From: Clostridia bacterium
Lineage (GTDB): Bacteria > Bacillota > Clostridia > UMGS1810
NCBI GenBank assembly: GCA_045606045.1
Contig: JAZURE010000032.1
Coordinates: forward strand, 9,863-73,862
Direction of reading: 5' to 3'
DNA: 64,000 bases
Notes under the pieces: generated by a model
The model's input: the letters and a program-made list of their open reading frames with translations, nothing else
Told to the model about the DNA's origin: nothing
Database searches by the model: none
Position numbers and translations under genes: made by a program
In this document: one piece after another, positions 5,735 through 54,334 of the stretch
Numbering within the stretch: position 1 is the first letter of the stretch
Layout of the letters: each line of letters begins with the position of its first letter

Positions 5735-5750
5735 GTAAAGGAAGATTATT

Positions 5751-15196: not shown

Positions 15197-15204
15197 ATAA
15201 TTGT

Positions 15205-15273
15205 CCTTGCAACTGACGGAACATAGATAACTATGAGGGAGCAAGGTCATGTTAAATGCCGACCGTCTGGGCT
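15205..15273 (+). promoter_or_regulatory. ZTP (pfl-motif) riboswitch aptamer
   Basis: P1 CCTTGC/GCAAGG encloses ACUGACGGAAC, a small hairpin (AUAG-AUAA-CUAU) and GAGGGAGC. The 3' subdomain has hairpin GGUC..GACC followed by GUCUGGGC. GACGG in the 5' part can pair with CCGUC in the 3' part, which is a covarying pseudoknot relative to the GGCG/CGCC I recall from ZTP aptamers. The pfl gene context matches. Confidence 0.7.
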
Positions 15274-15302
15274 CCTGTATTTTGAGGAGCCTTTTATTTT
15301 TT
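15270..15302 (+). terminator. riboswitch expression-platform terminator upstream of pflB
   Basis: Stem GGCTCCT/AGGAGCC followed by TTTTATTTTTT. The 5' arm overlaps the conserved CUGGGC of the aptamer. Confidence 0.7.
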
Positions 15303-15318: not shown

Positions 15319-17544
15319 ATGACATATCACAGAGGTTTTAAAGAGGGAAACTGGAACACAGCAATAGATGTTGCTGATTTTATAAAGCTTAATTACACAT
15401 ACTATGCGGGAAATTCCGATTTCCTTGCAGGTACTACCGAAAGAACAGATAAGGTAAAAGCGAGGGTAGAAGAACTCCTCGTCGAAGAAAACAAAAACGG
15501 CGGTGTACTGGAGGTGGATACAAATGTTGTATCCTCCATACTTTCGCATGCTCCAGGCTACATTATAGAGGGTGAGGATATCATTTTGGGTCTTCAGACA
15601 GACAAACCCTTAAAGCGTGCCGTAAATCCATTTTCGGGCTATCGAAATACAGTACAGGCCTGCGAAGCATACGGCTATGAGATAGGTGACAATGTCAAGG
15701 ATGAGTTCAAATACAGAACAACACACAATACAGGTGTTTTCAGAGTATATACAGATACAATGAGAAAGGCGAGACATGCGGGTATATTAACAGGTCTTCC
15801 CGATGCTTATTCCAGAGGCAGAATCATAGGAGACTACCGCCGAATTGCTCTTTACGGTATGGATTATCTTATTAAGCAGAGAAAACTCGACAAACAGAGA
15901 ATAAGCGAGCGCCTCATGACAGCAGAAAACATTCAGCTTCTGGAAGATATACAAAAGCAGCTTGAATTTATGACACAGCTTATTACCATGGCGGAACAGT
16001 ACGGATGCGATATTTCCCGTCCTGCCAACAATGCAAAAGAGGCTATACAATGGCTCTATTTTGGATATTTGGGCGCTGTAAAGGAGCAGAACGGTGCAGC
16101 AAACAGTATTGGTAGAATTTCTTCTTTCATAGATATCTACATAGAAAGAGACTTAAAAGAGGGTACACTGGATGAACTGGGTGCTCAGGAATTAATAGAT
16201 GACCTTGTTCTTAAAATGCGTCTTGTAAGACATTTGAGAACTCCTGAATACAACGACCTTTTTGCAGGAGATCCTGTGTGGGTTACCTGCTCGCTTGCAG
16301 GGGCTACCACAGAGGGTGTGCCTATGGTTACAAAGACCTGCTACAGATTCCTGCAGACTCTCTACAACCTCGGACCAAGTGCAGAACCCAATATTACAGT
16401 TTTATGGTCTCAAACGCTTCCCGAAGCATTCAAAGAATTTTGTGCGAAGGTTTCAATAGACACCGACTCTATCCAGTACGAAAATGATGATGTTATGCGC
16501 ACTGATTTTGGCGATGACTATGCCATAGCTTGCTGTGTATCTGCTATGAAAACAGGTAAGCAGATGCAGTTCTTCGGTGCAAGGTGCAACCTTGCAAAAG
16601 TACTCTTGCTTTCGTTAAATGGCGGTAAGGACGAGGTGTACGGCGAACAGATTGCTCCGGAAGGCAGAGTATTTGACGAGAGTGTTCTGAATTACAATAG
16701 TGTAATGGAAGCATTCAAAAGCTATGCTTCATGGATGGCAAAGCTCTATGTGAATACAATGAATATCATCCATTACATGCACGACAGATATGCCTACGAG
16801 AGACTCATGATGTCACTTCATGATGTAGAGCCGGAAAGACTAATGGCATTTGGCATAAGCGGTCTTAGTGTCCTTGTAGACAGTCTTAGCGCCATAAAAT
16901 ATGCCAAGGTTACACCGATAAAAGACGAAAGAGGAATCATAACAGACTTTAAGTGTGAGGGCGAATTCCCCAAATACGGAAATGACGATAACCGCGTGGA
17001 TGAGATTGCAAAATGGGTAACAGAATTTTTCTATACCGAGCTTTGCAAAACACCCACATACAGAAATGCTATCCACACATTATCCATACTCACTATTACA
17101 TCAAATGTAGTTTATGGCAAAAAGACAGGCGCTACTCCCGATGGCAGAAAGAAAGGCGAGCCTTTCGCTCCCGGTGCAAACCCCATGCACGGACGTGACT
17201 GCGAGGGTGCACTTGCATCACTTAATTCCGTTGCCAAGATAGATTATGCCTGCTGCAGAGATGGTATTTCCAATACATTCTCCATTACACCTGATTCTCT
17301 GGGTGTGGACGATGAAGACAGAACAAAGAAGCTTGTGGCTATCCTTGACGGTTATTTTGTTCAAAAAGCTCACCATCTTAATGTGAATGTATTAAACAGA
17401 CAAAAACTCATAGATGCCATGAATGATCCTACACTTTATCCGTCTCTTACCATACGTGTAAGCGGATATGCTGTAAACTTCAATAAGCTTACAAAGGATA
17501 AGCAGTTGGAGGTTATTTCCAGAACATTCCACGAAAAAATGTAG
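15319..17544 (+). CDS. pflB: pyruvate formate-lyase (formate C-acetyltransferase)
   Basis: 741 aa with the glycyl-radical motif RVSGYAVNF near the C-terminus and an active-site CC dyad (IACCVSAM). Confidence 0.95.
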
Positions 17545-23303: not shown

Positions 23304-24521
23304 ATGAGCGTATATGATACACTTAAAGAACGCGGACTTATAGCACAGGTTACGCACGAAGAAGAAATCAGAAATTTACTGGAAAACGAAAAGGTCACTT
23401 TCTATATAGGCTTTGACCCCACGGCAGACAGTCTTCATGTAGGACACTTTTTGCAGATGGTTGTAATGAAGCATATGCAGGATGCAGGCCACAGACCTAT
23501 TGCTCTTGTAGGAGGCGGTACAGGTCATGTAGGCGACCCCTCAGGCAGAACGGATATGCGTTCCATGATGACTACCGAAACCATCAATTATAACTGCGAA
23601 AGATTTAAAGAACAGCTTAGCCGTGTGATTGATTTTTCGGACGATAAGGCTATTATGGTAAACAATGCCGACTGGCTTTTAGAGCTTAACTACATTGAAT
23701 TTTTAAGAGACATCGGTGCTCATTTTTCTGTTAACAGAATGCTTACAGCAGAGTGCTTCAAGCAAAGACTTGAAAAAGGCTTGTCCTTCCTTGAATTTAA
23801 CTATATGCTTATGCAGAGCTATGACTTTCTTATGCTCTACAGAAAGTACGGATGTAAGATAGAGCTTGGCGGTGATGATCAGTGGTCGAACATTCTTGGA
23901 GGTATAGAGCTTTGCCGTAAGAAAGACCAGGCGCAGACCTATGGTATGACCTTTACTCTCCTCACAAACAGCGAAGGCAAAAAGATGGGTAAAACTCAGA
24001 GTGGTGCGCTCTGGCTTGACCCTAATAAGACATCCCCGTATGATTTCTATCAGTACTGGGTTAATGTTGACGATGCCGATGTTATTAAGTGCCTAAAGCT
24101 TCTTACATTCCTGCCTTTGGAGGAGATAGAGGTAATGTCTCAGTACAAGGATTCGGAAATAAATAAGGCTAAGAGAGTGCTTGCATATGAGGTTACAAAG
24201 CTTGTTCACGGTGAGGAAGAAGCTGAGAAGGCTCAAAAGGCTGCCATGGCACTTTTTGGCGGCGGAAATGATGACAGCAGCATGCCAACAACTGAAATTA
24301 CCGAAGCTGACCTTGGCAAAACCATCCTTGATATCATGCTTATTGCAGGTCTCATTCCATCCAAGGGTGAGGGCAGACGCCTTGTTCAGCAGGGCGGTGT
24401 AAGCATCGATTCCGACAAGGTTACTGATTTTAATCTTGTTATAGACAAAGCTATGTTTAATGACGGAAAAATAATAATCAAAAAGGGTAAAAAAGTTTTC
24501 CACAAATTTGTTTTGAAATAA
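23304..24521 (+). CDS. tyrS: tyrosine--tRNA ligase
   Basis: 405 aa with a class I HIGH-type motif (HVGH), KMGKT (KMSKS) and a C-terminal S4 domain. Confidence 0.95.
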
Positions 24522-24620: not shown

Positions 24621-24642
24621 GCGAAAAAGTGCAAAAAATTTT
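24621..24642. repeat. 22-bp terminal inverted repeat, copy A (GCGAAAAAGTGCAAAAAATTTT)
   Basis: The perfect reverse complement is present at 26418..26439. A partial inverted copy lies at 57413..57430. Confidence 0.8.
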
Positions 24643-24655
24643 TTAATTAGCATTT

Positions 24656-25696
24656 TTAGGCGGATAAAACGCTGTTTATACAAGCCTCGTATATCTCGGC
24701 AGAGCTATAATAGTTAAATATCCCTCTCGGGTAGTTATTTATCCACTTTTCGAGCTTGCGGGTGTCTGCGGGAGTAACTTTCTCAAAGCTAATTCCTTTC
24801 GGGTAGTGTCGGCGTATCATTTTATTTTGATTTTCATTTGAGCCGCGCTCGTATGAGCTGTACGGGTGGCAATAGTATATCTCGGTACGGTTTCCTTTTC
24901 GGCGGCAGCTCCGCTCTATGCCGAGGTAGTCGGAAAACTCGGAGCCGTTGTCTATTGTTATAGTTTGAAATACCTTTGAGAAATTCGCGCCGTATGCCCG
25001 CTCGATACCGTCAAGAGCTTTTATAACGCTTGCGGCTGTGTGGTCTTTCATTATGCGGATAATTTCGTAACGGGTGTACCGCTCCGTAAGTACAAGAAAA
25101 GTCTTTTTTGTGCCTTTCTTGCCGACTACACAATCCATTTCCCAATGTCCGAAAGAGCAACGCTCCGCAACCTCTGCGGGGCGTTTTTCTATGCTCTTAC
25201 CCTGCGGAGCTCTGTTTGGCTTTACTCGAGCGTATTTTTGTTTATCCTTATTTTTCTTTACGGGCAAGTCCTTATTTGTTATAGTGAGGAAAATACCGTC
25301 CTCGATATATCTATAAAAAGTCGTCTTTGATATGCTCGTATTGAATTGTAAGCCCTTGCGCTTAATTTCGCCCAGGATAGCCCCAGGAGCGTATTTTTCT
25401 ACCGATACTTTATACTCAAGGTATGTAGCGTACTCGTGGTCGGTACCTATTTTTAAGCCCGCTCCTTTTGCTTTAAGGTTGGCGCGGTATTTTTCCTCCG
25501 CAATATCGGGGCTGTAGCGTTCCTCCTCGGTGTAGTCGCTGTTGAGGTGGGTATAAACGCCCCGCTTTAATTCTCTATATATTGTGCTGATGTGCACGCC
25601 GAGCTCGGCGGCCATTTGTGCAGGCTTAACTCCGACTTTCTGCCAAGCCTCTATTTTTAGTCTATCTGTAAAAGTAAGGTGTTTATACTTGCTCAT
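24656..25696 (-). CDS. IS30-family DDE transposase/recombinase
   Basis: 346 aa with an N-terminal HTH (LTFTDRLKIE...LGVHISTIYRELKRG) and a DDE core (GHWEMD ... TIDNGSEF ... NENQNKMIRRHYPKG). Confidence 0.9.
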   Translation of the reverse strand: MSKYKHLTFTDRLKIEAWQKVGVKPAQMAAELGVHISTIYRELKRGVYTHLNSDYTEEERYSPDIAEEKYRANLKAKGAGLKIGTDHEYATYLEYKVSVEKYAPGAILGEIKRKGLQFNTSISKTTFYRYIEDGIFLTITNKDLPVKKNKDKQKYARVKPNRAPQGKSIEKRPAEVAERCSFGHWEMDCVVGKKGTKKTFLVLTERYTRYEIIRIMKDHTAASVIKALDGIERAYGANFSKVFQTITIDNGSEFSDYLGIERSCRRKGNRTEIYYCHPYSSYERGSNENQNKMIRRHYPKGISFEKVTPADTRKLEKWINNYPRGIFNYYSSAEIYEACINSVLSA

Positions 25697-25718
25697 AATA
25701 AAATCACTCCGTTTTATT
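25692..25718. repeat. 27-bp direct repeat covering a translation initiation region (copy 1)
   Basis: CTCATAATAAAATCACTCCGTTTTATT is identical to 56956..56982. On the minus strand it reads AATAAAACGGAGTGATTTTATTATGAG. Confidence 0.85.
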
Positions 25719-25751
25719 AAAATAAAATAGAGGGAGCCGTAAAGCTCCCTC
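25719..25751 (-). terminator. intrinsic terminator between the RHH gene and the transposase gene
   Basis: Minus-strand stem GAGGGAGC/GCTCCCTC followed by a U-rich tract (TATTTTATT). Confidence 0.55.
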
Positions 25752-25758
25752 CTTGATA

Positions 25759-25944
25759 CTACGCTAAAAAGCCCTCAATAGCCTTTTTTATAACTTGCGC
25801 TTGCGGCACGCCCTCGGCTGCGCATTTTTCCTTGAAAGCCTCCGCCATTTCTTTAGGGACTCTAACCGCTATTACATCATAAGTTTTTTGATTATATCGA
25901 GTTTTAACCTCTGTAGATGTTTTAGTTTTTCTTTTCTCTGCCAT
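25759..25944 (-). CDS. ribbon-helix-helix (CopG/Arc-like) DNA-binding protein
   Basis: Start moved to MAEKRKTK after an AAGGAGG RBS. The sequence ...YDVIAVRVPKEMAEAFKEKCAAEGVPQAQVIKKAIEGFLA fits a beta-strand plus two-helix pattern. Confidence 0.65.
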   Translation of the reverse strand: MAEKRKTKTSTEVKTRYNQKTYDVIAVRVPKEMAEAFKEKCAAEGVPQAQVIKKAIEGFLA

Positions 25945-25958
25945 AGCCTGCCGCCTCC

Positions 25959-26126
25959 TTAAAATAATTCGTTGGTAGTTACATACTCCCACAGCTCGTC
26001 TATTGTCGCGCAAATATCCTTTGAAACATCAAAGGCAAGCTCGAGCTTTCCGCTGTCGGTCTTTACCGTCCATTTTGTAGCCGACTCCGTTACGGTGTAG
26101 GTTTTTTCGCCTTTTACAATAACCAT
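25959..26126 (-). CDS. hypothetical protein (55 aa)
   Basis: Hand-translated: MVIVKGEKTYTVTESATKWTVKTDSGKLELAFDVSKDICATIDELWEYVTTNELF. It has an AGGAGG RBS and is below the ORF-track size cutoff. Confidence 0.45.
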   Translation of the reverse strand: MVIVKGEKTYTVTESATKWTVKTDSGKLELAFDVSKDICATIDELWEYVTTNELF

Positions 26127-26213
26127 AGCGTCCTCCTATTGATTTTTATATATATCTATGCTATAATAGGACTTACGAGAGGGGCGATTGCTCGCCCTCT
26201 CTCTGCCTTGAGC

Positions 26214-26351
26214 TTATTTGCTCTCGGGTTTTGCCTTGCTCGGCTTTGGCTTTACAAGTGTTATAGTAACTTTGACTCGTTCCACCGTGTCGTTATTCTG
26301 TAACGCTTTCGCCAGGTCTTGCAGGGCTTTTTCTATGCCTTGACTTTCCAT
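26214..26351 (-). CDS. hypothetical protein (45 aa)
   Basis: Hand-translated: MESQGIEKALQDLAKALQNNDTVERVKVTITLVKPKPSKAKPESK. It has an AAAGGAGG RBS and is the first ORF after the consensus promoter. Confidence 0.45.
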   Translation of the reverse strand: MESQGIEKALQDLAKALQNNDTVERVKVTITLVKPKPSKAKPESK

Positions 26352-26378
26352 AGGCTTATTACCTCCTTTCTGTATATT

Positions 26379-26407
26379 ATTATATCATACTGCTTGCAGT
26401 ATGTCAA
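26379..26407 (-). promoter_or_regulatory. consensus sigma-70-type promoter (minus strand) of the small-ORF/RHH/transposase operon
   Basis: The minus strand reads TTGACA, a 17-nt spacer, then TATAAT, about 20 nt upstream of the AAAGGAGG RBS. Confidence 0.7.
26386..26403. promoter_or_regulatory. 18-bp palindromic operator candidate inside the promoter spacer
   Basis: CATACTGC-TT-GCAGTATG has perfect 8-bp arms. It fills the -35/-10 spacer of the minus-strand promoter. Confidence 0.55.
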
Positions 26408-26417
26408 TAGTTATTTG

Positions 26418-26439
26418 AAAATTTTTTGCACTTTTTCGC
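26418..26439. repeat. 22-bp inverted repeat, copy B
   Basis: AAAATTTTTTGCACTTTTTCGC is the exact reverse complement of 24621..24642. It lies between two divergent promoters. Confidence 0.8.
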
Positions 26440-27013: not shown

Positions 27014-27571
27014 TTAGTCGCTTTCGTCCTCGTCGGCTCCGTTGTAGCATTTTGCTTTTGCCTCGTCTATTGTTTTTGTGATTTCGGCGAGGTATTTTTC
27101 TTGAGCTGCTCTAATTTCTGCGATATTGTTTTGTACGGTGTTTCTTAATATATGTGTTGCGCCCGTACCTGGGTGTTGTACCTTAAAGCCGTATACCTCG
27201 TTGTCGTAACGCATAAATTTTCTTGCGCCGTCTTTTGGTATAGAGTGCGGCTCCGTACCAAACTCTATCCAATGCGGCGAGGCGTGCGAGGGTAGCTTGC
27301 CCTTTTTCTTTACTTTCTGCCAAGAGTAAAAGCCTATTTGTAGCGTTGGTTGCCCCGTTTTGTAATTTATCATAGCCCAAGAGCCTATATGGTTTTTTAT
27401 TCTTTTCGAGCGTGGCGGCAAGTCTGCTCGTAATTTCTTGCGTATTACTTTTGCGGACTCTCTTAACGCGGTTTTTGATAAATTTACAAGTGTTTTCTTT
27501 ACCTCGGGGCTTACATCTATAAACTTAATCTCTACACCGTTTTTATTATATAAAGTTTTAGGGGTTGCCAT
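27014..27571 (-). CDS. HK97 gp10-family phage protein (neck/tail-completion type), displaced from the structural module
   Basis: 185 aa. The ...IKNHIGSW...WIEFGT..HSIP... pattern resembles the HK97 gp10 family. Confidence 0.55.
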   Translation of the reverse strand: MATPKTLYNKNGVEIKFIDVSPEVKKTLVNLSKTALRESAKVIRKKLRADLPPRSKRIKNHIGSWAMINYKTGQPTLQIGFYSWQKVKKKGKLPSHASPHWIEFGTEPHSIPKDGARKFMRYDNEVYGFKVQHPGTGATHILRNTVQNNIAEIRAAQEKYLAEITKTIDEAKAKCYNGADEDESD

Positions 27572-29366: not shown

Positions 29367-29549
29367 TTAATTGTATTCTTTGCCGATTGTTTCGAGCTCG
29401 GCGGCGGCTGTGCTGCGCATTTGTTGCAATTCCTCGTCGGTGCTGTATGCGATTTTAGCCTGCTCGATAATTTCCGCCTGCTTTTGGATAATATCAGCCT
29501 GCAAGCGAGTTACTATGCAGAGCCTCTCTATAACCTCAAGTAAGCTCAT
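29367..29549 (-). CDS. hypothetical protein
   Basis: 60-aa helical ORF in an operon-like arrangement. Confidence 0.4.
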   Translation of the reverse strand: MSLLEVIERLCIVTRLQADIIQKQAEIIEQAKIAYSTDEELQQMRSTAAAELETIGKEYN

Positions 29550-29916
29550 TTTCGGAGCCCTCCTCGCTGTCGGGAGGTGTTGGAAATTTTACATCAAAGG
29601 GAAAGCCTGCTTGTGTAGGCAAGTCCCTTAATGCCTGGCGATACTCCGCCCAAGCTCCCTTGAATATTTTTGAAAGCGAGGTAATAAACTTTGTCGCAGA
29701 GGAGAGGTCGAGCCCGAGGCGGTCAAGGGACATTTGCGCGTCGCTGTTGTCGAGCAGCTTATTACGAATTTTGCGGGCAAGCGCTGCCGCCTCCTCCTCG
29801 TTACGCTCCTCACAAGCGGCGACGTATGCCGCTTTTAATATTTCCTCGAGTTCTGCTTTTTTAGCTGCCGCCATTGCCTCAACCTGGGCGAGGCGTTTGT
29901 GGTAATTGTTGTTCAC
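29536..29916 (-). CDS. tail-fibre assembly/chaperone-like protein
   Basis: 126 aa. The ...RNKLLDNSD...W.EYRQALRDLP...P motif resembles phage tail assembly chaperone-like domains. Confidence 0.45.
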   Translation of the reverse strand: MNNNYHKRLAQVEAMAAAKKAELEEILKAAYVAACEERNEEEAAALARKIRNKLLDNSDAQMSLDRLGLDLSSATKFITSLSKIFKGAWAEYRQALRDLPTQAGFPFDVKFPTPPDSEEGSENELT

Positions 29917-30943
29917 GGTTTGAGCCCTCCAATTCCTTATAGAATTTAATCATTTTACGCCGCTCGTGGTATGTATTCCCGCGAGCTGCATTTGCAAGCC
30001 AAGAAACGAGCGACTCGCGCGTAGTGCCTGGCGCATAGTCGCCGCTTTGCTCTTTGGCATATAGCTTTTTGAGCTTTCGGCGTTGCTTTCCTTGTTTCTT
30101 TTTATCCATTTTGCGTATAATCGCTCCCGAGTCGGTAACGATAAAACGCCATTGCAGCAGCTTTACGCCCTGGCGGAGTGGATAAAGCGAGGTTTTGCCG
30201 TTGAGCTGTAGCCCGATAGCGTTTACTTGCTTTTCTATCTCTGCGCGGCAATGCTGCAAAAATTCCTTGTCCTGGTGGACTAACACAAAGTCGTCCATAT
30301 ACCGTATATAATGCTTTACTCGGAGCCGCTCTTTTATAAAGTGGTCGAGGTCGTCGAGTACAGCAAGAGCTACGAGCTGCGATACCTGGGAGCCGAGCCC
30401 GATACCCGTATCGCCGCCGAAAGAGTCTACAATTTCGCAGGCTCGAGCCGCTATTTGCGTGTCGGTAACGCGCTTACATATTGCAGCCTTTGCTATATCG
30501 TGGCGTATACTCGGGAAATAGTGGTGTATATCACATTTAAGCACCCACCCGTCGCAGCCGTGAGCTTTATAATAACGGCGTAGATGTGCCGTCATACGGT
30601 TTAATGTATAATCGACTCCGCGCCCGCGCAGGCAGGCGCAATTATCGGTTATAAAAGACTTTGTTATCTGCTCGTAGAGTCCGTTATCACATAGCGAGCG
30701 TGGAAATTGTCGGTCTTTTAAGCGAGTTGCTACAATTTCCCGTCGTTTCGGCTCGTATATGGTAAAGTGTTGGTACCTATCTATTCTATATTTGCCGTTT
30801 AAGAGGCTTTCTCTCAATCGGTAAGTATTTTTTAAGGCGTTGCCCTCATAGCCTACGGTACTATCTTTCCAACGGATATTACGGCAGCTTTGTTTTAACC
30901 CCTTGTAGAGGTTGTCAAAAGATATAACTTGATTATAAGACAT
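29879..30943 (-). CDS. diversity-generating retroelement reverse transcriptase
   Basis: 354 aa with RT motifs including IRYMDDFVLV (YMDD) and an SQ-containing motif 4 (GLGSQVSQL). It is immediately 3' of the TR. Confidence 0.9.
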   Translation of the reverse strand: MSYNQVISFDNLYKGLKQSCRNIRWKDSTVGYEGNALKNTYRLRESLLNGKYRIDRYQHFTIYEPKRREIVATRLKDRQFPRSLCDNGLYEQITKSFITDNCACLRGRGVDYTLNRMTAHLRRYYKAHGCDGWVLKCDIHHYFPSIRHDIAKAAICKRVTDTQIAARACEIVDSFGGDTGIGLGSQVSQLVALAVLDDLDHFIKERLRVKHYIRYMDDFVLVHQDKEFLQHCRAEIEKQVNAIGLQLNGKTSLYPLRQGVKLLQWRFIVTDSGAIIRKMDKKKQGKQRRKLKKLYAKEQSGDYAPGTTRESLVSWLANAARGNTYHERRKMIKFYKELEGSNREQQLPQTPRPG

Positions 30944-31237
30944 ATTAAAAAGGCGGACGCATAAAAAGGACTACCTCGTAAGGTACCTTTGTCGCCCGCA
31001 ATATTCCCTCCTTTTCGGAGGTAGGACGGTCGCTCCTTGTGTGAGCTGCGCTGCTTTGGTCTTTCGACTACTTGAAAACGGGCTTTTCTCACAATCGGGG
31101 GCGACTCCGTTAGCATTGTTCGCGTTGTTGTTGTTCAACGCTCCCGAGGTATTCACATTGCGCTCGTTGTTCGCGTTCCCAGGGTTAGGGGAACGGAGCC
31201 AACAGTTACGCGCCGAGCCAAAAAAATAGCAACCGCC
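30944..31237 (-). ncRNA. DGR template RNA (TR plus spacer region between avd and the RT gene)
   Basis: Noncoding interval that contains the TR and a downstream spacer with hairpins (for example CCTCCGAAAAGGAGG). The exact extent is inferred. Confidence 0.6.
31091..31219 (-). repeat. DGR template repeat (TR)
   Basis: 129 bp collinear with VR1 and 96 bp collinear with VR2. All differences fall on TR adenines on the coding strand. The frame is AAC-rich (NANNERNVNTSGALNNNNANNANGVAP). Confidence 0.92.
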
Positions 31238-31648
31238 CTACATTTCTTTGTACTTTTCCTTGTCGGACTTTATCCAGGCTTTTAATAAGTCGTCTGTCTT
31301 GAGTATTAACCCCGTCCAAAACTCTACTTTATCGCCCGAAATATAGCCCGCTCCGTATGCGTCGTCGATAAGGTCTAATAGAGCGTCAAGGTGCGCGTGC
31401 GCTTTGACTTGCTCCATACGGCGGTAGTTGTATTCCTCGGCATTTGTTACATATACCGAGTTCGCGTGCCGTATGCAAACACAAGCCTCGCGTACCTCCG
31501 CAGCTATCGGAGCCGCATACAGCCAACGGGTGCTCTTTGGAAAGTGTTTATCATTCTTTAATTGACTTAAAGAATAGTTTTTAAGCTCCCGCGCTTTATT
31601 TAATACTTGCAGCTTGCCCTCGCCTCTGTCGCCTTTCCTAACGCTCAT
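31238..31648 (-). CDS. avd: DGR accessory variability determinant (Avd), four-helix-bundle type
   Basis: 136 aa, located between the target gene and the TR, with a basic helical sequence ending ...LLKAWIKSDKEKY. Confidence 0.75.
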   Translation of the reverse strand: MSVRKGDRGEGKLQVLNKARELKNYSLSQLKNDKHFPKSTRWLYAAPIAAEVREACVCIRHANSVYVTNAEEYNYRRMEQVKAHAHLDALLDLIDDAYGAGYISGDKVEFWTGLILKTDDLLKAWIKSDKEKYKEM

Positions 31649-31666
31649 ATTAAAACCTCCTTTTAA

Positions 31667-31684
31667 CCGCCTCTACCGAGGCGG
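31667..31684 (-). promoter_or_regulatory. GC-rich hairpin downstream of VR1 (DGR homing hairpin/cruciform candidate)
   Basis: CCGCCTC-TACC-GAGGCGG: 7-bp stem, 4-nt loop, 20 nt from the VR1 end. Confidence 0.7.
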
Positions 31685-31692
31685 ATTGTCGA

Positions 31693-33708
31693 TTATGCGA
31701 TTATACAAGCGGGGGCGACTCCGTAAGCATTGCTCGCGCTGTTGCCGTACAACGCTCCCGAGGTATCCACATTGCGCTCGTGGTACGCGTGCCCAGGGTT
31801 AGGGGAACGGAGCCAACAGTTACGCGCCGAGCCCGCCGCGTCGTATTTGATACGCTCGGTATCGGTTAAGCCCTCGTAAAACTCTAACAGCGTACCGTCC
31901 TTATAGGTCGCGCTGTCGTAGGTACCGTATATTTCGGGACGAGAAAGTAAGAAAAATCTGTCCTTTAATGTGTATACCTGGTTTGTGGCAAACTCTGTAC
32001 CGTCGAGGCTGTTTACCTCAAAAATAGAGTTAGCACGGCAAGGGATAGCCGCAGGCTGCACTACCGCCAAAAAGTCGGCAGGCAAGCCGCGCACAAAGCC
32101 GTTATAACTTGTATTCCAAGAGGGCGGACGGTCAAAAACAGTAGTAGGAGCCCATACGCCGCCCGCTGCTGCGTCGCTGTTTAACCATTGACGAGCCGCG
32201 CTCTGTGCGTAGTTATTCGAGCCGTACCGTATGCGGTGCGTGTGGTTAAGGTTTTCTACGGTACCGTCAGCTACGCCGAGGCTTGTACCGTCTGCGGACT
32301 CTGTTACAGCTACGCTCTCAATAACCGCCGTAGCTGCATTGCTTGCGTATGTACTGATTTTTGTATCGGTGCTTTGCTTTTGGTAGCCCCAGGGGAACAT
32401 AATTACGCCGCCTGCGGGTACGGGTTTTGTAAGTGTAAACGAAAGCGTTTTGCCTCCGCCGTATGTCGTGTCGTAGCCTGCAAGCAGGGTAAAATTATAA
32501 GTGCCTGCGGGTAATTCCTCGGCAGCATAATAAAGAGCCTCCGTAGCGTCAAAAACAAAGCTACGATATGTACCGTTTGCGGTGCCGTATACATACTTTG
32601 TTTCGAGCGTCATTGTATGAGTGAGCTTTTTATTTGCTGCGATATGGTTGTCGTGTCCTCTTACAACCCAGGTAATAACCGCTCCCGTAACGGAGTCCTC
32701 TGTAGTAAACTCATAACCAACGGGAAAGAGTGTAGCTCCAAGCCCGAGGCGTACAGCGTTTTTAACATCTTCCCAGGTCTTAATAGCCGTAAGAGTGTCA
32801 ATATGTACGCTTGTTTGCACGCCCTCTCTGTCTGTTACGGTAATAGTTGCTCCCGTAGCCGTCTGCTCTGCGGAAATATTAACATTTTCCGCGCCCTCGG
32901 CTGCCTCTGCTGCTGCGTTAGCCGCGTCCGCTGCCTTGTTGGCATTTTCTGTAGCAGTATTTGCGTTGTCGGTAGCAGTATTTGCCGCTCCCGCTGCGGT
33001 GTTTGCCGCTCCCGCTGCCGCGTCCGCTGCTGTTTTCGCGGTGTTGGCTGCGTCTGTCGCTGCGCGAGCTCCCATTGCTGCCGTATCGGCGTTTGTGGTC
33101 GCTGTATCTGCATTGTTAGCCGCTGTATTAGCCTTTTTTGCGGCTGCGTCTGCCGCTGCTTTTGAGGTATTCGCAGCCTCGGCGGCTCCGTTGGCTGTTT
33201 CAGCTGCTGTTTCGGCTGTTTCGAGTGCCTCTGTAGCGTCCTCTACGGCTGCGGCTGCATCTTTTGCTGCCTGGTCGGCTGTAGTAGCCGCTCCGTTAAT
33301 CTTATTAAAAGCGTCTATAAGGGCGTTATACTCGTCGGAGGAGGCGGGAGCGTCCTTGTCAAAGGCTGCGCGCTCAACATCTATATAAAATGTCTGAGAG
33401 CTCAAGAGCTCCTCTCCCTTATAAAGTCCGATTTCCGCAGCAGCTACGCCAGGAGCAGCGAGAGCTTGCGCTGTGAGCTCGGCAATAATAACGCCGTTTT
33501 CGATTTTAGCGTCGTTTAATACCGTGTGCCCGTCCGCTTTTGTGAGCTGCAAGCGAGGAGTAATGCCCTCCTCGAGTGCGTAGCTCTGTCCGCCGTTAAG
33601 TGGCGTAATTTCAAGAAAACGGGTTTTATTATCGTTCTGCTTTGCAAAAACGGTAATAGGCATTGTATCGCGTCCAAAATCGAGGTTTATTTTTTGCTTA
33701 ATCTCCAT
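31693..33708 (-). CDS. tail fibre/receptor-binding protein, DGR target 1 (BppU-like N-terminus, Ala/Asn/Thr-rich stalk, C-terminal CLec-type variable domain)
   Basis: 671 aa. The N-terminus (MEIKQKINLDFGRD..) resembles the baseplate upper protein N-domain. The C-terminus ...CWLRSPNPGHAYHERNVDTSGALYGNSASNAYGVAPACIIA contains VR1. Confidence 0.85.
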   Translation of the reverse strand: MEIKQKINLDFGRDTMPITVFAKQNDNKTRFLEITPLNGGQSYALEEGITPRLQLTKADGHTVLNDAKIENGVIIAELTAQALAAPGVAAAEIGLYKGEELLSSQTFYIDVERAAFDKDAPASSDEYNALIDAFNKINGAATTADQAAKDAAAAVEDATEALETAETAAETANGAAEAANTSKAAADAAAKKANTAANNADTATTNADTAAMGARAATDAANTAKTAADAAAGAANTAAGAANTATDNANTATENANKAADAANAAAEAAEGAENVNISAEQTATGATITVTDREGVQTSVHIDTLTAIKTWEDVKNAVRLGLGATLFPVGYEFTTEDSVTGAVITWVVRGHDNHIAANKKLTHTMTLETKYVYGTANGTYRSFVFDATEALYYAAEELPAGTYNFTLLAGYDTTYGGGKTLSFTLTKPVPAGGVIMFPWGYQKQSTDTKISTYASNAATAVIESVAVTESADGTSLGVADGTVENLNHTHRIRYGSNNYAQSAARQWLNSDAAAGGVWAPTTVFDRPPSWNTSYNGFVRGLPADFLAVVQPAAIPCRANSIFEVNSLDGTEFATNQVYTLKDRFFLLSRPEIYGTYDSATYKDGTLLEFYEGLTDTERIKYDAAGSARNCWLRSPNPGHAYHERNVDTSGALYGNSASNAYGVAPACIIA
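31705..31833 (-). repeat. DGR variable repeat 1 (VR1)
   Basis: 129 bp with 11 mismatches to the TR, all at TR adenines. Confidence 0.92.
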
Positions 33709-33727
33709 TTGAAAGCCTCCTCAAATT

Positions 33728-33979
33728 TTATTCGGTAGCCTCGTAGCCCGCTACGATATTTTCCCTCTCCTCGATTTCAGCCTCGAGCTTTGCTTTTTCA
33801 GCCTGGAGGCTTTCGAGGTCGGTACCCTCTGCTGCATTATCAATCTGCTTGCAAAGGTTTTCGTATCTACGCTGCGCATTTGCGAGAGCGTAGAGGTCGT
33901 CGGACTTTTCATAGATAACGCGCTGTACCTCTACGCGCTTTCCGTTTTCGTATTTTGTGCTTGTAATTTCGGTTGTCAT
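33728..33979 (-). CDS. hypothetical coiled-coil protein
   Basis: 83-aa ORF within the tail module. Confidence 0.45.
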   Translation of the reverse strand: MTTEITSTKYENGKRVEVQRVIYEKSDDLYALANAQRRYENLCKQIDNAAEGTDLESLQAEKAKLEAEIEERENIVAGYEATE

Positions 33980-34003
33980 AGGTCTACATCTCCTTTATAA
34001 AAA

Positions 34004-34405: not shown

Positions 34406-35746
34406 TTATGGTATCGCGTTAAGTTCGTCCCTTAACGCATTTAAGCCCGCTGCCGTTACGGTGTCGCCGCTGCTTACCGTATAGAGGTAGGAGCCGTAGC
34501 CGCTTATGCCTTTTATAGCATTTACGGCTTGATTATACATTGCGGCGGTAAAGTCATTGCCTTTGTAAGCATAGGTAAAGCTGTAGCTGCTCAAGCCCTT
34601 ATACTCTCTAAAAGCGTTTATACGCGCCGTTAATGCGTTCCACTCGGCAGCAGTAAGGTTAAAGCTGCCGCCGCTTGTTTTGGTGTAAGTCCAGGAAAAA
34701 TTACTCGGTCTTACCGCTGCTGCCTCGGGAGGTTGTATGTATAGGTCAATAACGCCCGTACTGCTGCCGCTGTATTGGCATATCCACACATAATAAGTAG
34801 TGCCTGCGGTTACATTGTAGGTTATAGCGAAATTGCTACTCGGTCCCGAGTCGTCGTCCTCCTCTATCGGAGAGGACGGCGCGCCGTTTGTTGAGTCAAA
34901 CGCGCTTGAGGTGCTTAAAAAGCCGTATGTGTCCTCGTCGCCCATTGTAAAGAAATTAGCCTCGCCGCTATTTTCAAAGCTAACCGAGTATCTCTTTATT
35001 TGTTTTGCGCTCAAAGAAAAGCTCGCGCTTTTTTCCTCGCTGATTGTCCCGAGTGCTCCCGACGATACCGTCCAAGATTGCCCTGGAGGCTCTATATATA
35101 GAGTCGTTTTGCCCGTTGTAGAGCTTGAGTAGCCTCTAACCCAAATATAATAATTTGTGCCTGCGGTAACATTGTAGGATATAAAAAAGTTTGGTGCGCC
35201 GTTTGTGTCGTCGTCCTCTTTAAGAGGAGAGGAGGGCGCGCCGTTCTCACTATCCCACCCCGTAGAGGTGCTCAAAAAGCCGTAAGTATCTGCACTTGTG
35301 CCCTCGGTGTAAAACTTTGCTGTCCCGCTATTTGCAAACGATACTTTGTATCTATATAACGAGTATTCACTCAAGGAAATAGAAACGCTTTGCAGAGTAG
35401 ATAACGACGAGCTGAAAGTATACGGGTATAGTTCCCAGGAGTCGGAGGGCTCTACATATTCCTCCTCGCCCTCGGCGCGGATATATATATCCTGGGTGCC
35501 CGAGTAGGTAAACGGGTTTGAGTAACTGTATTGTACTGTGCCCGAGGTGCTGCCTAATCGGTATACCCACCTTGTAAAATTACACCCGCTCGCAGGGTTT
35601 GCGGTAAACCTTATGCTATAGCTAAAACCACTTAACGAGAGTGTGTCGCCGTTGTCTACGGTATAGCTTTGGCTAATTCCATAGACATAAATATCCGTAG
35701 AGGCGATAGTTTCGTCGTTTCCGTAACAAGTAAACGAAAAGCTCAT
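34406..35746 (-). CDS. tail-associated protein with two pre-peptidase C-terminal (PPC)-like domains
   Basis: 446 aa with an internal duplication: ...Y(R/S)VSF.NSG.A.F.T.G..DTYGFLSTS...DS.NGAPSSP.(K/E)EDDD.....NF.I.YNVTAGT.YY.W......STG...LYI.PP occurs twice. Confidence 0.55.
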   Translation of the reverse strand: MSFSFTCYGNDETIASTDIYVYGISQSYTVDNGDTLSLSGFSYSIRFTANPASGCNFTRWVYRLGSTSGTVQYSYSNPFTYSGTQDIYIRAEGEEEYVEPSDSWELYPYTFSSSLSTLQSVSISLSEYSLYRYKVSFANSGTAKFYTEGTSADTYGFLSTSTGWDSENGAPSSPLKEDDDTNGAPNFFISYNVTAGTNYYIWVRGYSSSTTGKTTLYIEPPGQSWTVSSGALGTISEEKSASFSLSAKQIKRYSVSFENSGEANFFTMGDEDTYGFLSTSSAFDSTNGAPSSPIEEDDDSGPSSNFAITYNVTAGTTYYVWICQYSGSSTGVIDLYIQPPEAAAVRPSNFSWTYTKTSGGSFNLTAAEWNALTARINAFREYKGLSSYSFTYAYKGNDFTAAMYNQAVNAIKGISGYGSYLYTVSSGDTVTAAGLNALRDELNAIP

Positions 35747-35761
35747 ACATATACCACCACC

Positions 35762-38356
35762 TTACCCAAATACCGCAACAGAGGTACCGCTGCCCGCGTG
35801 GTCTAATACCCAATCTTGAGTAGCGAGTAAATAGCCGTTTGCGTATATCATAGGCTCGTCATATCCCGAGTCGTTACCTAAACCCGTAAACCTTACAGAG
35901 GAGGCGCTAAAATACAGTCCCGTAGGCGACAAGCTGCCTAAATGGTCGCCGACAGTTCCCATTTGTGCGCCGCTGTTAAAGATTATAGACTTTGTACCGC
36001 TTGCGGAGCTTGAGCCTATATACAGATTTCCCGCTACTTGAGCAATATTTGTACTTATTCGGTCTGCGCTTATAGTGCCCGTAGTGATATTCGCGCCGTT
36101 AATTGTCGTATAGCCCTCTGTTTCGAGGTCGTCGAAAGTAACAACGCCCGAAAAGCTAACAGAGGCGGAGTCGATAGTAACGCCGTTATGCTTTATGCGT
36201 ATTGTGCTGCTCGTACTGCCGTTTGTGGTAGTAAGAGTAATACCGTCGTATATAGCGTCGCCTGCCGCCTCGTAAGCCTCGTCGTAAACCTCCGAGCTTT
36301 TAGCATAGGCTGTAAGGTCTATTTTGCCTGCGTTAATTGATACGGAGCTCGTGTCGTCGTTAATTGCCGCAATAATGCTCGCGCTGTCAATTACATTTCC
36401 GCCGCTTGTAGATGTTACAACGAGGGAGATTTTGTCCGCGAGCTGCGTAATTTCGGAGGACATTTCCGTTTTCGTCGGGTATGAGGTCAGCTTGCCGTCC
36501 GTATACTCATTTGCGCCGCTTTCTGCGTCAGCCGCCAGGGTTTCCGCATAGGTGCGGGCAGCCGTTACGGTCAAGCTGATAGCGTCGGCTGATTGCTTAA
36601 TCGCGGAGGACATTTCCTCGGTAGTAGGGTAAGCCGTGAGCTGCTCCTCGGTGTAGTCGTTGGCGTTGCTCTCCGCGTCCGCTGCCAGGGTTTCGGCATA
36701 GGTGCGAGCTGCGGTTACGGTTAAGGCTATTGCGTCCGCCGATTGCTTAATCGCGGAGGACATTTCCTCCGTTGTGGCATAATCGGCGAGCTTAACATTT
36801 ATAGAGCTTAATAACTCCTGGTCTGCAACCTTGAAAGCCTGCGTTACAGAGCTCTCTACATTGCCTATAGCGTCTGTTACCTCTTGCTTATACTCCGCAG
36901 AGATAGCAGAGGCTTTTACGCTGTCAGCTTGCAGCAAAACGCCGTTAAGAGTTCCCGCTGTGATAAAGTCGGCTACGATTGCGCCGTCCATTGTCATAGC
37001 GAGAGCAAACTCTCCATTATAACCCGTAGAGGAGTACCCGAGTCCGCCGCTATTCCAACGCCATACTTTTACTGCCTCCTCAATAGTAGGCGCGTCAAGT
37101 ATGAGTATTTCTTGCGGCTTTTCTGCGGGGTTTAATACCACATATCCGCCCGAGTGCCCCGTAATAAGGTTTGTAGCGTTCAAAATAGCCTTTTTGAGCT
37201 CCTCGGAGGCTTTGGCTTGCCCTTTCCTTATTGAGTCCTTAATTTGCTCAATAGCGTTATTTTGAGCGTTTATAGTGTCTGCAAGAGTGCTCTTTGCGTC
37301 GCCGAGCTCTACGCTTTCGTATTTCTCCGCCAGGGAGTCGTAAACGGTCTTAATAACCTTTGCAGAGGCATTAACGCCGAGCTGCGAAAAGTGTACCGTT
37401 ACCGTGTCGCAGAGCTTAACCCTCTCAAGCGGTGCAATGTTTTTATATTCCTCTGTTTGCCATAACTGAATAAAAGAAACGGTTATGCTTACCTTTGGCG
37501 TGCCGAGTCCCGCTCCCGCTGCGTATGCGGTTGCTTTTTCCCTCAAGGCAGCCTCGGTAATTTTCTCGTCCTCTCCAAACTCTGCGGAAAAGTCCATAAT
37601 ATAGGCTTTGCTGTGTCCGATATTCTCGGCTTTTTGGAGTGGCAGCACCTTTTCCGAAAGGAAAACATATACCTCTTGCTTTTCTTCGTCGTCCTCGCCG
37701 TCCTCCTGGTATACAGCATAAGGCATTAAATGCGTATAACAATCGGCTATATTAGCCTCTTGCTTGAGGTCTTTAAGGTTTTTGCCGTATTCAATGAGTA
37801 CGCCGTTATCCGCTCCGCGCTGCTCGTGCAGCTTAATAACGAAATTGTCAAACTCATACTCTCCGCCCCATACATCAAGGACGGAGCCTTCTTGTCCGCC
37901 CAGGATAGCGCGGACAGAGCAGGGAGTAGGAATACTCGTGCTGTTGAGCGTTGAAATGTCGCTTATAACACTAAACGGGCAAGGCAAGCCCGCCTCCTCG
38001 ATAGCGCGGTTAATTGCCATTTGTGGCGTTGCACTTTTAATAGAAAAACCGAGAGTTGGTATGCCGTTTAAGTCGTAGCTGATGTGCTCCGCAGAATATG
38101 TAACGAGCCCCTTTAACGGCTTGCTCGATTTATATACGCGGAATAGCTGCGGCTCGCTCGTTTCGTTGGCTTTAGCCTTAATAATGCAGCCCTCGGTAAT
38201 TTTGTCGTACCATTGCCCCGTAATAGGGTACTGCAACGAAAGCTCGTAGCTCCCGTTGCGTTCCTCTGTTACCGTAGCTTTTGCGGTATCTCTTAAAAAG
38301 CCGATACCATTGTGCAAAAAGTCGGTTTCGTTTTTTGCGTATAAAATTGGTATCAT
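35762..38356 (-). CDS. tail-associated lysin/minor structural protein (Tal-like)
   Basis: Start at MIPILYAKNETDFLHNGIG.L, the typical N-terminus of siphovirus tail endopeptidase/minor structural proteins. It overlaps the Dit stop. The C-terminal half is repeat-rich and fibre-like. Confidence 0.75.
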   Translation of the reverse strand: MIPILYAKNETDFLHNGIGFLRDTAKATVTEERNGSYELSLQYPITGQWYDKITEGCIIKAKANETSEPQLFRVYKSSKPLKGLVTYSAEHISYDLNGIPTLGFSIKSATPQMAINRAIEEAGLPCPFSVISDISTLNSTSIPTPCSVRAILGGQEGSVLDVWGGEYEFDNFVIKLHEQRGADNGVLIEYGKNLKDLKQEANIADCYTHLMPYAVYQEDGEDDEEKQEVYVFLSEKVLPLQKAENIGHSKAYIMDFSAEFGEDEKITEAALREKATAYAAGAGLGTPKVSITVSFIQLWQTEEYKNIAPLERVKLCDTVTVHFSQLGVNASAKVIKTVYDSLAEKYESVELGDAKSTLADTINAQNNAIEQIKDSIRKGQAKASEELKKAILNATNLITGHSGGYVVLNPAEKPQEILILDAPTIEEAVKVWRWNSGGLGYSSTGYNGEFALAMTMDGAIVADFITAGTLNGVLLQADSVKASAISAEYKQEVTDAIGNVESSVTQAFKVADQELLSSINVKLADYATTEEMSSAIKQSADAIALTVTAARTYAETLAADAESNANDYTEEQLTAYPTTEEMSSAIKQSADAISLTVTAARTYAETLAADAESGANEYTDGKLTSYPTKTEMSSEITQLADKISLVVTSTSGGNVIDSASIIAAINDDTSSVSINAGKIDLTAYAKSSEVYDEAYEAAGDAIYDGITLTTTNGSTSSTIRIKHNGVTIDSASVSFSGVVTFDDLETEGYTTINGANITTGTISADRISTNIAQVAGNLYIGSSSASGTKSIIFNSGAQMGTVGDHLGSLSPTGLYFSASSVRFTGLGNDSGYDEPMIYANGYLLATQDWVLDHAGSGTSVAVFG
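36430..36795 (-). repeat. about 2.4 tandem copies of a 150-bp (50-aa) repeat inside the Tal gene
   Basis: GATTGCTTAATCGCGGAGGACATTTCC recurs at 36591 and 36741, with a diverged copy near 36455. The protein repeat is TTEEMSSAIKQSADAI.LTVTAARTYAETLAADAES. Confidence 0.8.
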
Positions 38357-53626: not shown

Positions 53627-53642
53627 TGCGCCTAACGGCGCA
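53627..53642 (-). promoter_or_regulatory. GC-rich hairpin downstream of VR2 (DGR homing hairpin candidate)
   Basis: TGCGCC-TAAC-GGCGCA: 6-bp stem, 4-nt loop, 29 nt from the VR2 end. Confidence 0.65.
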
Positions 53643-53644
53643 GA

Positions 53645-54334
53645 TTACTTAAAGATTGAGGGATTGAAAATACAAGCGGGGGCGACTCCGTAAGCACAGT
53701 GCGCGTTGTAGTTGCCCAACGCTCCCGAGGTATTCACAATGCGCTCGCTGTACGCGTACCCAGGGGTGCAGCTCCAGGGTGTTATAGTCCATACCCAGGT
53801 ATCGTATTTAGGCACGAAAGCTCTATACTTTCTGTAAAGGTCGTCCGAAAGCAAAGCGATAAAGTCCTCGGAGGTACCGTAGCTCTTGTCGCCGTTGTCC
53901 GCTGTTAAGTCGGAAATAATCGGTATAAGGTCGCCCTTGTCAAAATTCTTTATGTATTCCTCGTTAAGGAATTTGCGGAGGGTAGAGCTGCGCCAATCGT
54001 TGCAGCAGTTCTCGTCGTAAGGCATTTCGGGCTCGAGCCTCTTTGCCGCTACAGCAAGTACGCCGCCCTGCTTATAGCCCAGGGCTACAAACTCCATACC
54101 GTTATAATTAAAGTGCTCGCCCGCCGTTGGTATCTTGTCGCTTATAGGCTCGGGCTTGCCCTCTCCGTTCTCCTGGTCGTCCTCGTATTCGTCCTCATAC
54201 TCCGCAGGGGTAAAAATGCCTGCAAAAGCGAGGGAAACAACCGCCTCGGCTCTTTTCTTGTTGTCCTCGGGGTTTGGGTTGGTCGCTATGTCGTCGCAAA
54301 GGGACTCTATAGCTGTTAAAATGCTGCTGTTCAT
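53645..54334 (-). CDS. DGR target 2: small acidic protein with a C-terminal CLec-type variable domain, no signal peptide seen
   Basis: 229 aa with an acidic linker (EYEDEYEDDQENGEGKPEP). The C-terminus ...WSCTPGYAYSERIVNTSGALGNYNAHCAYGVAPACIFNPSIFK contains VR2. Confidence 0.8.
   Translation of the reverse strand: MNSSILTAIESLCDDIATNPNPEDNKKRAEAVVSLAFAGIFTPAEYEDEYEDDQENGEGKPEPISDKIPTAGEHFNYNGMEFVALGYKQGGVLAVAAKRLEPEMPYDENCCNDWRSSTLRKFLNEEYIKNFDKGDLIPIISDLTADNGDKSYGTSEDFIALLSDDLYRKYRAFVPKYDTWVWTITPWSCTPGYAYSERIVNTSGALGNYNAHCAYGVAPACIFNPSIFK
53672..53767 (-). repeat. DGR variable repeat 2 (VR2), remote from the cassette
   Basis: 96 bp collinear with TR 31091..31186, with 13 mismatches, all at TR adenines. 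Confidence 0.88.

Follow-up and report, generated by a model that had tools for sequence, protein, structure and literature searches.

Does the tail-fibre region of a gut clostridial prophage carry a complete diversity-generating retroelement (DGR), and which genes does such an element rewrite? The question was raised by a 64,000-nucleotide stretch of DNA from Clostridia bacterium (GTDB lineage Bacteria; Bacillota; Clostridia; UMGS1810), taken from GenBank assembly GCA_045606045.1, contig JAZURE010000032.1, positions 9,863 to 73,862 of the forward strand. This whole stretch is hereafter called the window, and its positions are numbered from its first letter. A prediction made from the letters alone had placed a DGR between positions 29879 and 33708. 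We regard it as highly probable that this cassette is a complete DGR of the BPP-1 type, residing in a prophage of gut Clostridia/Oscillospirales. On the minus strand the order is target gene with its variable repeat (VR1), avd (accessory variability determinant), template repeat (TR), spacer and reverse transcriptase (RT) gene. Target, Avd, TR and RT were each checked and found present and intact, which bears out the original prediction of a complete element. One TR rewrites two genes, encoding the tip of a 671-aa fibre and a 229-aa protein located 22 kb away (Table 1). The cassette is intact, and natural copies compared between samples support a lineage with clear recent activity.

Template repeat, reverse transcriptase and Avd

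The most direct evidence comes from the repeats themselves. In a machine comparison, TR and VR1 align without a gap over 129 nt at a fixed offset of 614, reproducing the collinearity previously worked out by hand, and identity drops to background directly beyond both ends. The comparison returned exactly the 11 differences that had been listed, at TR positions 31095, 31111, 31119, 31125, 31131, 31132, 31135, 31153, 31168, 31171 and 31177. All 11 are T on the plus strand of the TR, that is, A on its coding (minus) strand, and no mismatch falls on any other template base. With 33 adenines among 129 nt, the probability that 11 of 11 mismatches fall on A by chance is C(33,11)/C(129,11) = 7e-8. An independent repeat search recovered the same repeat family together with a third copy at 53672.

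The TR is not part of a real gene; it sits between avd and the RT gene, 147 nt upstream of the latter. Translated in the frame of the VR it reads GSARNCWLRSPNPGNANNERNVNTSGALNNNNANNANGVAPDC and contains 14 AAY codons (Y, pyrimidine). VR1 comprises the last 43 codons of the large target bar the final three residues, ending 9 nt before the stop codon of the open reading frame (ORF). Re-translation returned the TR and VR1 peptides as originally quoted, and the ORF coordinates and lengths (671, 136 and 354 aa) were likewise right.

The RT matches Pfam RVT_1 (1.3e-10) and PHROG 1423 (2.3e-101). Its best PDB match is the BPP-1 enzyme bRT (8ub7_A, E 3.4e-20, residues 4-290), whereas other RT classes in the PDB remain far behind (group II, 3e-7; retron, 4e-5; Drt, 3e-7 or weaker). 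The predicted YMDD enzyme with an SQ motif was recovered in this alignment: LGSQVSQ aligns to bRT I181-Q187 and YMDD to the catalytic aspartates D215/D216, and equivalents of bRT F66, R74, I76, A78 and D138 are kept. RTs of DGRs carry the signature [I/V/L]GxxxSQ instead of QGxxxSP (PMC7826257). The motif, the intact YxDD and the closest solved relative together support an assignment of the protein as a probable DGR-type RT. We found neither a premature stop nor an inactivating change; the protein is full length and keeps its catalytic and signature residues. A tblastn search of phage records returned RTs of Faecalibacterium, Bacteroides, Bordetella and Vibrio phages at no more than 52% identity (the best being MT838839, 52%), and the first three of these belong to groups with described DGRs.

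The 136-aa protein had been called Avd-like, an assignment that agrees with its match to PHROG 3206, ‘Avd protein of DGR’ (7.4e-29), and with its modelled fold. Its AlphaFold2 (AF2) model is a four-helix bundle with a mean predicted local distance difference test score (pLDDT) of 88.9. The top Foldseek matches of the model are the pentamers of IVS proteins (2rld/2gsc), bAvd (4dwl_D) and the Avd chain of the DGR ribonucleoprotein (RNP; 8ub7_C), the latter with TM-scores of 0.69/0.83 and a root-mean-square deviation of 1.9 Å. Sequence searches of the PDB, with the single query or with a 25-sequence profile, returned nothing meaningful for Avd.

Spacer RNA and homing signals

The 147 nt between TR and RT gene encode a structured RNA. 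We aligned ten sequences (49-97% RT identity) and derived their consensus with RNAalifold, which gave 38 pairs in seven helices, with compensatory changes in 21 of the 38. In this alignment 91% of cells are paired, versus 33-49% when partners are slid by 1-3 columns, and none of 500 shuffles reaches the observed values. Helices 1 and 2 join the 3′ end of the TR to the spacer, the other five adding to the structure downstream. Helix 1 pairs CGCCCC (31103-31098) with GGAGCG (31036-31031) and is by eye two pairs longer (GTCGCCCC:GGAGCGAC); helix 2 pairs TGTGAG (31093-31088) with CTCACA (31045-31040). Compensatory examples in these two helices are TGCGAG/CTCGCG in one relative (L029) and GGGGG/CCTCC in another (L033). 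In the BPP-1 RNP, TR118-129 and Sp47-56 form the template:primer duplex, and cDNA synthesis begins at the TR base immediately 5′ of this duplex (bioRxiv 10.1101/2023.10.23.563531). The TR-spacer helices of the window presumably correspond to that duplex.

The sites at which cDNA would enter the targets would be marked by the initiation of mutagenic homing (IMH) sequence. Within the window, a pattern search found the 18-mer GGAGTCGCCCCCGMTTGT in exactly three copies, in TR, VR1 and VR2, as against 0.04 expected. The base after the GC-rich GTCGCCCCCG is A in the TR (31095) and C in both VRs, and the same C is found in 19 of 19 correctly registered VR1 and in 5 of 5 VR2 sequences. Because this A/C difference is constant in all VRs and 31095 lies within the spacer-pairing segment of the TR, it is a fixed difference between IMH and its TR counterpart IMH* and not a product of mutagenesis. 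The window VR1 therefore carries 10 mutagenic changes: of the original count of 11, the placement at TR adenines stood for every site, while 31095 drops out as a trace of mutagenesis. As judged from these alignments, the VR 3′ ends appear to bear an IMH distinct from the IMH* of the TR.

Both VRs are followed by a hairpin. BPP-1 homing relies on a hairpin/cruciform with a GC-rich stem of 7-10 bp and a 4-nt GRNA loop, 4-34 bp from the VR (PMC3240598), a description that the VR1 hairpin fits (7-bp stem; DNA fold -11.7 kcal/mol, z -2.9) and from which the VR2 hairpin departs slightly in stem and loop. The VR1 stem is held by compensatory changes in L029, L032 and L033; relatives have stems such as CCGCCCC/GGGGCGG, CCGCGCC/GGCGCGG and CCGCCC/GGGCGG, in which the sequence has changed and the pairing is kept, and L028 and L036 have the same stem with another loop. 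The GTTA loop of the VR2 hairpin is also found 3′ of VRs in L032 and L033.

By analogy with BPP-1, these parts would act as follows. TR and spacer would be transcribed as a single RNA, which would fold so that the TR 3′ end (GTCGCCCC...TGTGAG) pairs with spacer positions 31045-31029. A complex of RT and Avd would prime cDNA synthesis in cis at the TR:spacer duplex and copy the TR from about 31106 to 31219, with non-adenines copied faithfully and random bases placed opposite adenines. The cDNA would then replace the homologous VR, guided by the GC-rich IMH (GTCGCCCCCGC) and by the downstream hairpin with its 4-nt loop. A copying start near 31106 would explain why the TR never passes on its final 15 nt, among them 31095, and also why 13 of 13 VRs keep the adenine at 31106; the positions templated first are resistant to misincorporation in BPP-1 (PMC7826257). 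Two GNRA-capped stem-loops of the spacer, GTC-GAAA-GAC and CCTCC-GAAA(A)-GGAGG, are candidates for Avd-binding or stop elements, as in other DGRs.

The spacer also resembles an RNA motif already catalogued. In a search of 361 nt, the Rfam model RT-2 (RF03077) matches 30932-31085 over its full length (1-222) with 32.1 bits (E 5.7e-6); as this lies below the gathering score of 40, the spacer is best described as a divergent relative of RT-2 and is not a member by the Rfam criterion. Like RT-2 RNAs, it is structured and lies directly upstream of an RT gene, and it shares with them stems and the conserved segments AAGUAG...GAAAG...AAGGAG; unlike them, it misses two long insertions of the model. 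Weinberg et al. (2017) assigned RT-10 alone to a DGR and treated the role of the other RT motifs as speculation (PMC5737381). A bona fide RT-2 RNA (131.6 bits) is present on another contig (L043, JAZURO010000202.1, 5703-5917), where it is situated between an RT gene whose product is 38% identical to that of the window and an avd-like gene with a TR-like DUF6273 C-terminal segment. This layout points to RT-2 as a class of spacer RNA in DGRs. The 13 kb examined contained no VR that matches the TR-like segment, so that this contig supports the position of RT-2 and is not shown to hold a complete DGR.

Table 1 Features of the retroelement, its targets and the adjoining chaperone gene in the window
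Feature	Coordinates	Strand	Description
Tail-fibre assembly chaperone gene	29536..29916	-	Phage_tail_APC 1.2e-12; PHROG tail fiber assembly 2.9e-18
DGR reverse transcriptase gene	29879..30943	-	354 aa, intact; RVT_1, PHROG 1423, bRT match
TR-RT spacer	30944..31090	-	structured RNA, seven helices, 147 nt; covariation
TR 3′ end:spacer duplex	31031..31103	-	helices 1 and 2, compensatory changes; presumed template:primer duplex
TR, template repeat	31091..31219	-	129-nt match to VR1; 33 adenines, 14 AAY codons in VR frame
avd, accessory variability determinant	31238..31648	-	136 aa; PHROG 3206, IVS/Avd fold
VR1 hairpin/cruciform	31667..31684	-	CCGCCTC-GGTA-GAGGCGG; 20 nt past VR1, 8 nt (31685-31692) past stop codon
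Large target gene	31693..33708	-	671 aa; BppU_N, Ala-rich fibrous repeat region, C-terminal DUF6273 with VR1
IMH-like VR1 3′ end	31705..31722	-	GGAGTCGCCCCCGCTTGT; TR counterpart IMH* (31091-31108) has A for C at 31095
VR1, variable repeat	31705..31833	-	ungapped 129-nt TR match; 11 mismatches, all at TR adenines
VR2 hairpin	53627..53642	-	TGCGCC-GTTA-GGCGCA; 29 nt past VR2, 2 nt (53643-53644) past stop codon
Small remote target gene	53645..54334	-	229 aa; helical/acidic N-terminus, then DUF6273
VR2	53672..53767	-	96-nt copy of TR 31091-31186; 13 mismatches, all at TR adenines

Two targets and the variation of their repeats

The product of the large target gene combines an N-terminal baseplate anchor (BppU_N, 3.5e-12) with a C-terminal DUF6273 domain (1.9e-18; 67.3 bits, above the Pfam gathering cut-off of 23.5) and matches PHROG 19280 (1.4e-239) as well as tail-fibre PHROGs. 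Its residues 470-671 were modelled by AF2 with a pLDDT of 85.5. The BFVD matches of this model are DUF6273 phage proteins, and its PDB match is 9qa6 alone, the DUF6273 N-terminal domain of the IgA peptidase of Thomasclavelia ramosa (E 4e-7). The 14 AAY codons of this target are diversifiable, which allows for up to ~15^14 variants.

The small target also contains a DUF6273 domain (Pfam 4.9e-6; 26.9 bits vs the cut-off of 23.5), with 13 AAY codons, and matches PHROG 9958 (1.8e-50). All 13 mismatches between TR and VR2 fall on TR adenines (P 5e-8), and 24 nt separate the end of VR2 from the stop codon of the ORF. The gene is placed among early, non-structural genes, next to genes for a predicted transmembrane SLT (lytic transglycosylase) protein and a DNA methyltransferase. 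Its homologues are found in the Faecalibacterium phages Toutatis and Lelie and in phages nd4 and nd12. Exact-protein look-ups around VR2, which returned short contigs alone, gave four copies of the region from other samples (L011-L014), each with its own VR2 differing at TR-A positions, with one exception; together with the window, all five VR2 copies examined are different. Three of these independent short contigs (L011-L013) start inside or beside VR2 (window 53672-53800), consistent with assemblies having broken at a repeat or a variable site, without telling which.

For VR1, an exact-sequence look-up of the Avd protein yielded ten contigs from other metagenomes (L001-L010). Their Avd is identical, their RT genes are 96-99% identical to that of the window, and eight of the ten have an identical TR. 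The ten nevertheless comprise eight distinct VR1 sequences, one of them common to L006, L009 and L010. Where the TR is of the standard type (nine contigs), 13-22 positions separate each VR1 from the TR of its contig, all adenines apart from one non-A each in L003 and L004. Prophages of metagenome-assembled genomes (MAGs) found by their RT (L015-L026, 82-97% RT identity) were added, giving 20 distinct VRs. In this set 302 differences are located at TR adenines, versus 11 elsewhere; the AAY adenines are each changed in 35-80% of copies, and the residues encoded spread over many amino acids. The spectrum of changes comprises 118 A>G, 94 A>T and 58 A>C. More widely, 17 MAG prophages (49-97% RT identity) share the same layout with A-only TR/VR mismatches, and the closest genomic copies (RT identity up to 97%) are prophages in MAGs of gut Clostridia, Acutalibacteraceae, Oscillospiraceae and Ruminococcaceae. 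Both VR1 and VR2 vary between samples while Avd and TR are identical. Variation was compared across samples, as a stand-in for a read pile-up, and not within one sample. A pattern of this kind is what repeated mutagenic retrohoming off an invariant template would be expected to leave.

One contig departs from this uniformity. In L005 (jgi 3300029305 Ga0307249_10028729; TR 4430-4558, VR 3816-3944) 13 positions set the TR apart from that of the family. The VR of this contig disagrees with the contig's own TR at 12 non-adenine sites and matches the window-type TR at 9 of these 12, which suggests a replacement of or recombination in the TR after the last homing, or a chimeric assembly.

Several results weigh against our reading of the cassette as a complete, BPP-1-like and recently active element. 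The evidence for activity derives from sister copies and none of it from this particular copy, and one of the sisters, L001 (ERZ27297539 k141_953959), has a nonsense codon at residue 126 of its RT gene (4706-5770, 99% identical). Its VR still shows 18 differences, all at adenines. L001 exemplifies a recently inactivated DGR, and inactive copies exist in the population. Avd has no match in Pfam, and its match to the NCBIfam model DivGenRetAVD, though full-length, is weak (18.9 bits, cut-off 80). Foldseek searches of the target C-terminal model against the PDB returned no Mtd, TvpA, FGE or lectin at E <= 10; the C-type lectin fold that the original prediction gave to the fibre was thus not recovered, and the label comes from the literature. 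The spacer falls short of RT-2 membership, and the VR2 hairpin has a 6-bp stem, a GTTA loop off the GRNA consensus and a z of -1.0, no better than shuffles. A scan of 29400-34000 for promoters and terminators gave counts not above those of shuffles and is uninformative on transcription units.

Can these data be accommodated without a working DGR? One could suppose that the repeats are ordinary paralogous or recombining DUF6273 segments and that a retron, group II or defence RT happens to lie nearby. DUF6273 proteins are commonly found in phages, and an NCBIfam search of the RT returned no DGR RT model: a group II intron maturase (70 bits) ranked first and Drt3a and retron models came next, each far below its cut-off. 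Ordinary divergence, however, is not expected to put 302 of 313 differences on one template base, nor does it account for a TR that lies outside any real gene and stays invariant while the VRs change. The RT is nearest to bRT, with the DGR-specific [I/V/L]GxxxSQ replacing QGxxxSP; Rfam gave no retron msr/msd match, and there are no intron RNA domains. We therefore assign practically no probability to an explanation that is already effectively refuted. A fossil DGR, active in recent ancestry and inactive in the window copy, so that its VR differences would be historical, deserves more weight and is still unlikely. Decay or mismatch does occur in the population, as the RT stop at codon 126 in L001 and the 12 non-A mismatches between TR and VR in L005 illustrate. 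Against this stand a full-length window RT (354 aa, as in most sisters) with its catalytic and signature residues present, a TR equal to the population consensus, and an Avd, IMH, hairpins and spacer helices that are all intact; furthermore, VRs differ between contigs with 99% identical RT, implying very recent turnover.

It is also conceivable that the adjacent fibre is the sole true target and that VR2 is a relic recombination copy with no current diversification. VR2 shares just 96 nt with the TR, its hairpin is the weaker one as described above, and only five VR2 sequences are available. Nevertheless, all five are distinct and differ at TR-A positions (one exception), the exact IMH is kept in VR2 including the fixed C, and small targets with VRs of their own have been reported in phages Lelie, CP11, nd4 and nd12 (PMC11792537, PMC10743442). 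We hold this explanation to be very unlikely, slightly more so than a fossil element, and read the locus as a DGR with two targets.

Within the variable repeats not all template adenines behave alike. Four isolated TR adenines, 31142, 31106, 31164 and 31150 (index 77, 113, 55 and 69 on the minus strand, respectively), are seldom changed, and three of them stand in a G-A-G context. Since indices 77 and 113 each occupy the third, synonymous position of a GGA codon, selection on the protein cannot explain the rarity of their change. Index 77 is changed in 0 of 13 VR1 and 0 of 5 VR2. Extra scans of metagenome and viral contigs with an A-masked pattern added 8 further distinct VRs and brought the figure to ~1 in 26 distinct VRs, as compared with 35-80% at AAY adenines. 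The sole VR with a change at index 77 is that of L099, in which indices 69 and 77 both show A>G; the proposal that G-A-G adenines are never mutated was rejected on this account. The seldom-changed adenines are mutable, about 10 times less often than the AAY adenines. Protein-level selection could be the cause at index 55 (GAG) and index 69 (ACC), and proximity to the start site may account for index 113. In BPP-1, per-site misincorporation ranges over ~30-76% without a clear sequence rule, with ‘no obvious relationship ... with primary sequence’ (PMC7826257). It is possible, although we lean towards doubt, that adenine mutagenesis here is strongly site-dependent beyond protein selection and that the RT-2-class spacer serves as the template-priming RNA of DGRs, which would give an orphan Rfam motif its function.

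Known relatives and prophage setting

The arrangement follows that of BPP-1 (mtd-avd-TR-brt), namely target with the VR at its 3′ end, avd, TR, spacer and RT gene. The two systems further share adenine-specific mismatches and an AAY-rich TR, the RT signature motif with 8ub7 as best PDB match, the four-helix Avd fold, an IMH that is GC-rich and directly followed on its 3′ side by a TR/VR difference, a GC-rich hairpin (4-nt loop) after the VR, the pairing of the TR 3′ end with the spacer, and a tail-fibre receptor-binding protein as target. They differ in that the RT aligns with bRT over 287 residues with modest similarity (E 3e-20) and that the target domain is DUF6273 and not Mtd, to which neither sequence nor Foldseek searches gave a match. 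Moreover, the window element has two targets, one of them 22 kb distant, its host is a Gram-positive gut anaerobe, and its spacer RNA is in or near the RT-2 motif, whereas that of BPP-1 is RT-10 (PMC5737381).

Among published systems, the two-target DGRs of Faecalibacterium phages Lelie/Toutatis, prophage CP11 and phages nd4/nd12 come closest. A ‘large plus small’ pair of DUF6273 targets was described for Lelie and CP11 (PMC11792537), and two DUF6273 targets for the gut phages nd4 and nd12 (PMC10743442). All of these have Oscillospirales or gut hosts and, as in the window, one TR serves a large structural and a small (~230-290 aa) target, both with the VR at the DUF6273 C-terminus. In the three phages for which both matches could be mapped (Lelie, Toutatis and nd12), the distance between small target and RT is 12-16 kb. 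Identity between the window and the Faecalibacterium phages plus nd4/nd12 amounts to 35-42% for the RT and 30-35% for the small target. Unlike in those phages, the large target here has a BppU_N anchor and a C-terminal DUF6273 without Ig domains, and is not a ‘tentaclin’, and the prophage is smaller (~30 kb). A megablast search of the cassette against 50,697 phage records gave no match, so there is no close deposited phage.

The window consists of bacterial chromosome with an inserted prophage at ~27-57 kb. The prophage encodes lysis, DGR/tail-fibre, tail, capsid, portal, terminase, replication, small-target, methylase and PAPS-reductase functions; no integrase was found among the prophage ORFs scanned against domain libraries. 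The cassette is indeed embedded in the tail-fibre module, as had been proposed, being flanked by the fibre gene and by the tail-fibre assembly chaperone gene, the first 38 nt of which overlap the end of the RT gene; beyond lie the genes for holin and endolysin. Past these, at the left edge of the prophage, a minus-strand ORF for a tail-completion/Neck1-like protein (27014-27571; PHROG 5, 1.6e-8) occupies an unusual place for a virion-assembly gene. Internal repeats are present in other tail genes (36414-36767, 34784-35245 and 39943-40456): the 881-aa Prophage_tail protein has three tandem units of 150 nt, the 446-aa protein beside the fibre a 357-nt internal duplication, and a 728-aa ORF, presumably the tape measure, a 66-nt periodicity.

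On the left, the host gene for tyrosyl-tRNA synthetase (TyrRS, 23304-24521) is followed by an IS30-like transposase gene (HTH_38 + rve, 24656-25696) between 34-nt inverted repeats (24621-24654/26406-26439, 85% complementary); this region, 24621-26439, separates the TyrRS gene from the prophage. The right flank contains genes for threonine synthase (57541) and formate-tetrahydrofolate ligase (60188). Further upstream on the plus strand of the host chromosome, a tRNA gene (15029-15100) is followed by a ZMP/ZTP riboswitch (15199-15279, 55.8 bits) located just upstream of a 741-aa ORF (15319-17544).

The locus is new and the system class known: it does not change the current understanding of DGRs, and the layout with a large and a small DUF6273 target has already been published for Faecalibacterium phages. 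What it adds is modest, namely an RT-2-like spacer RNA that pairs with the TR 3′ end, a fixed IMH/IMH* site, which would mark the point at which copying begins, and rarely mutated adenines, some of them synonymous. Should the low mutability of the latter prove to be a property of the RT-RNA complex, set by sequence or template structure, they would offer a natural handle on misincorporation frequency. The locus may serve as an annotation reference for a widespread prophage family, represented by dozens of MAGs and metagenome contigs. It provides a fully resolvable DGR from a prophage of uncultured gut Clostridia, with natural evidence for the rewriting of both of its targets.

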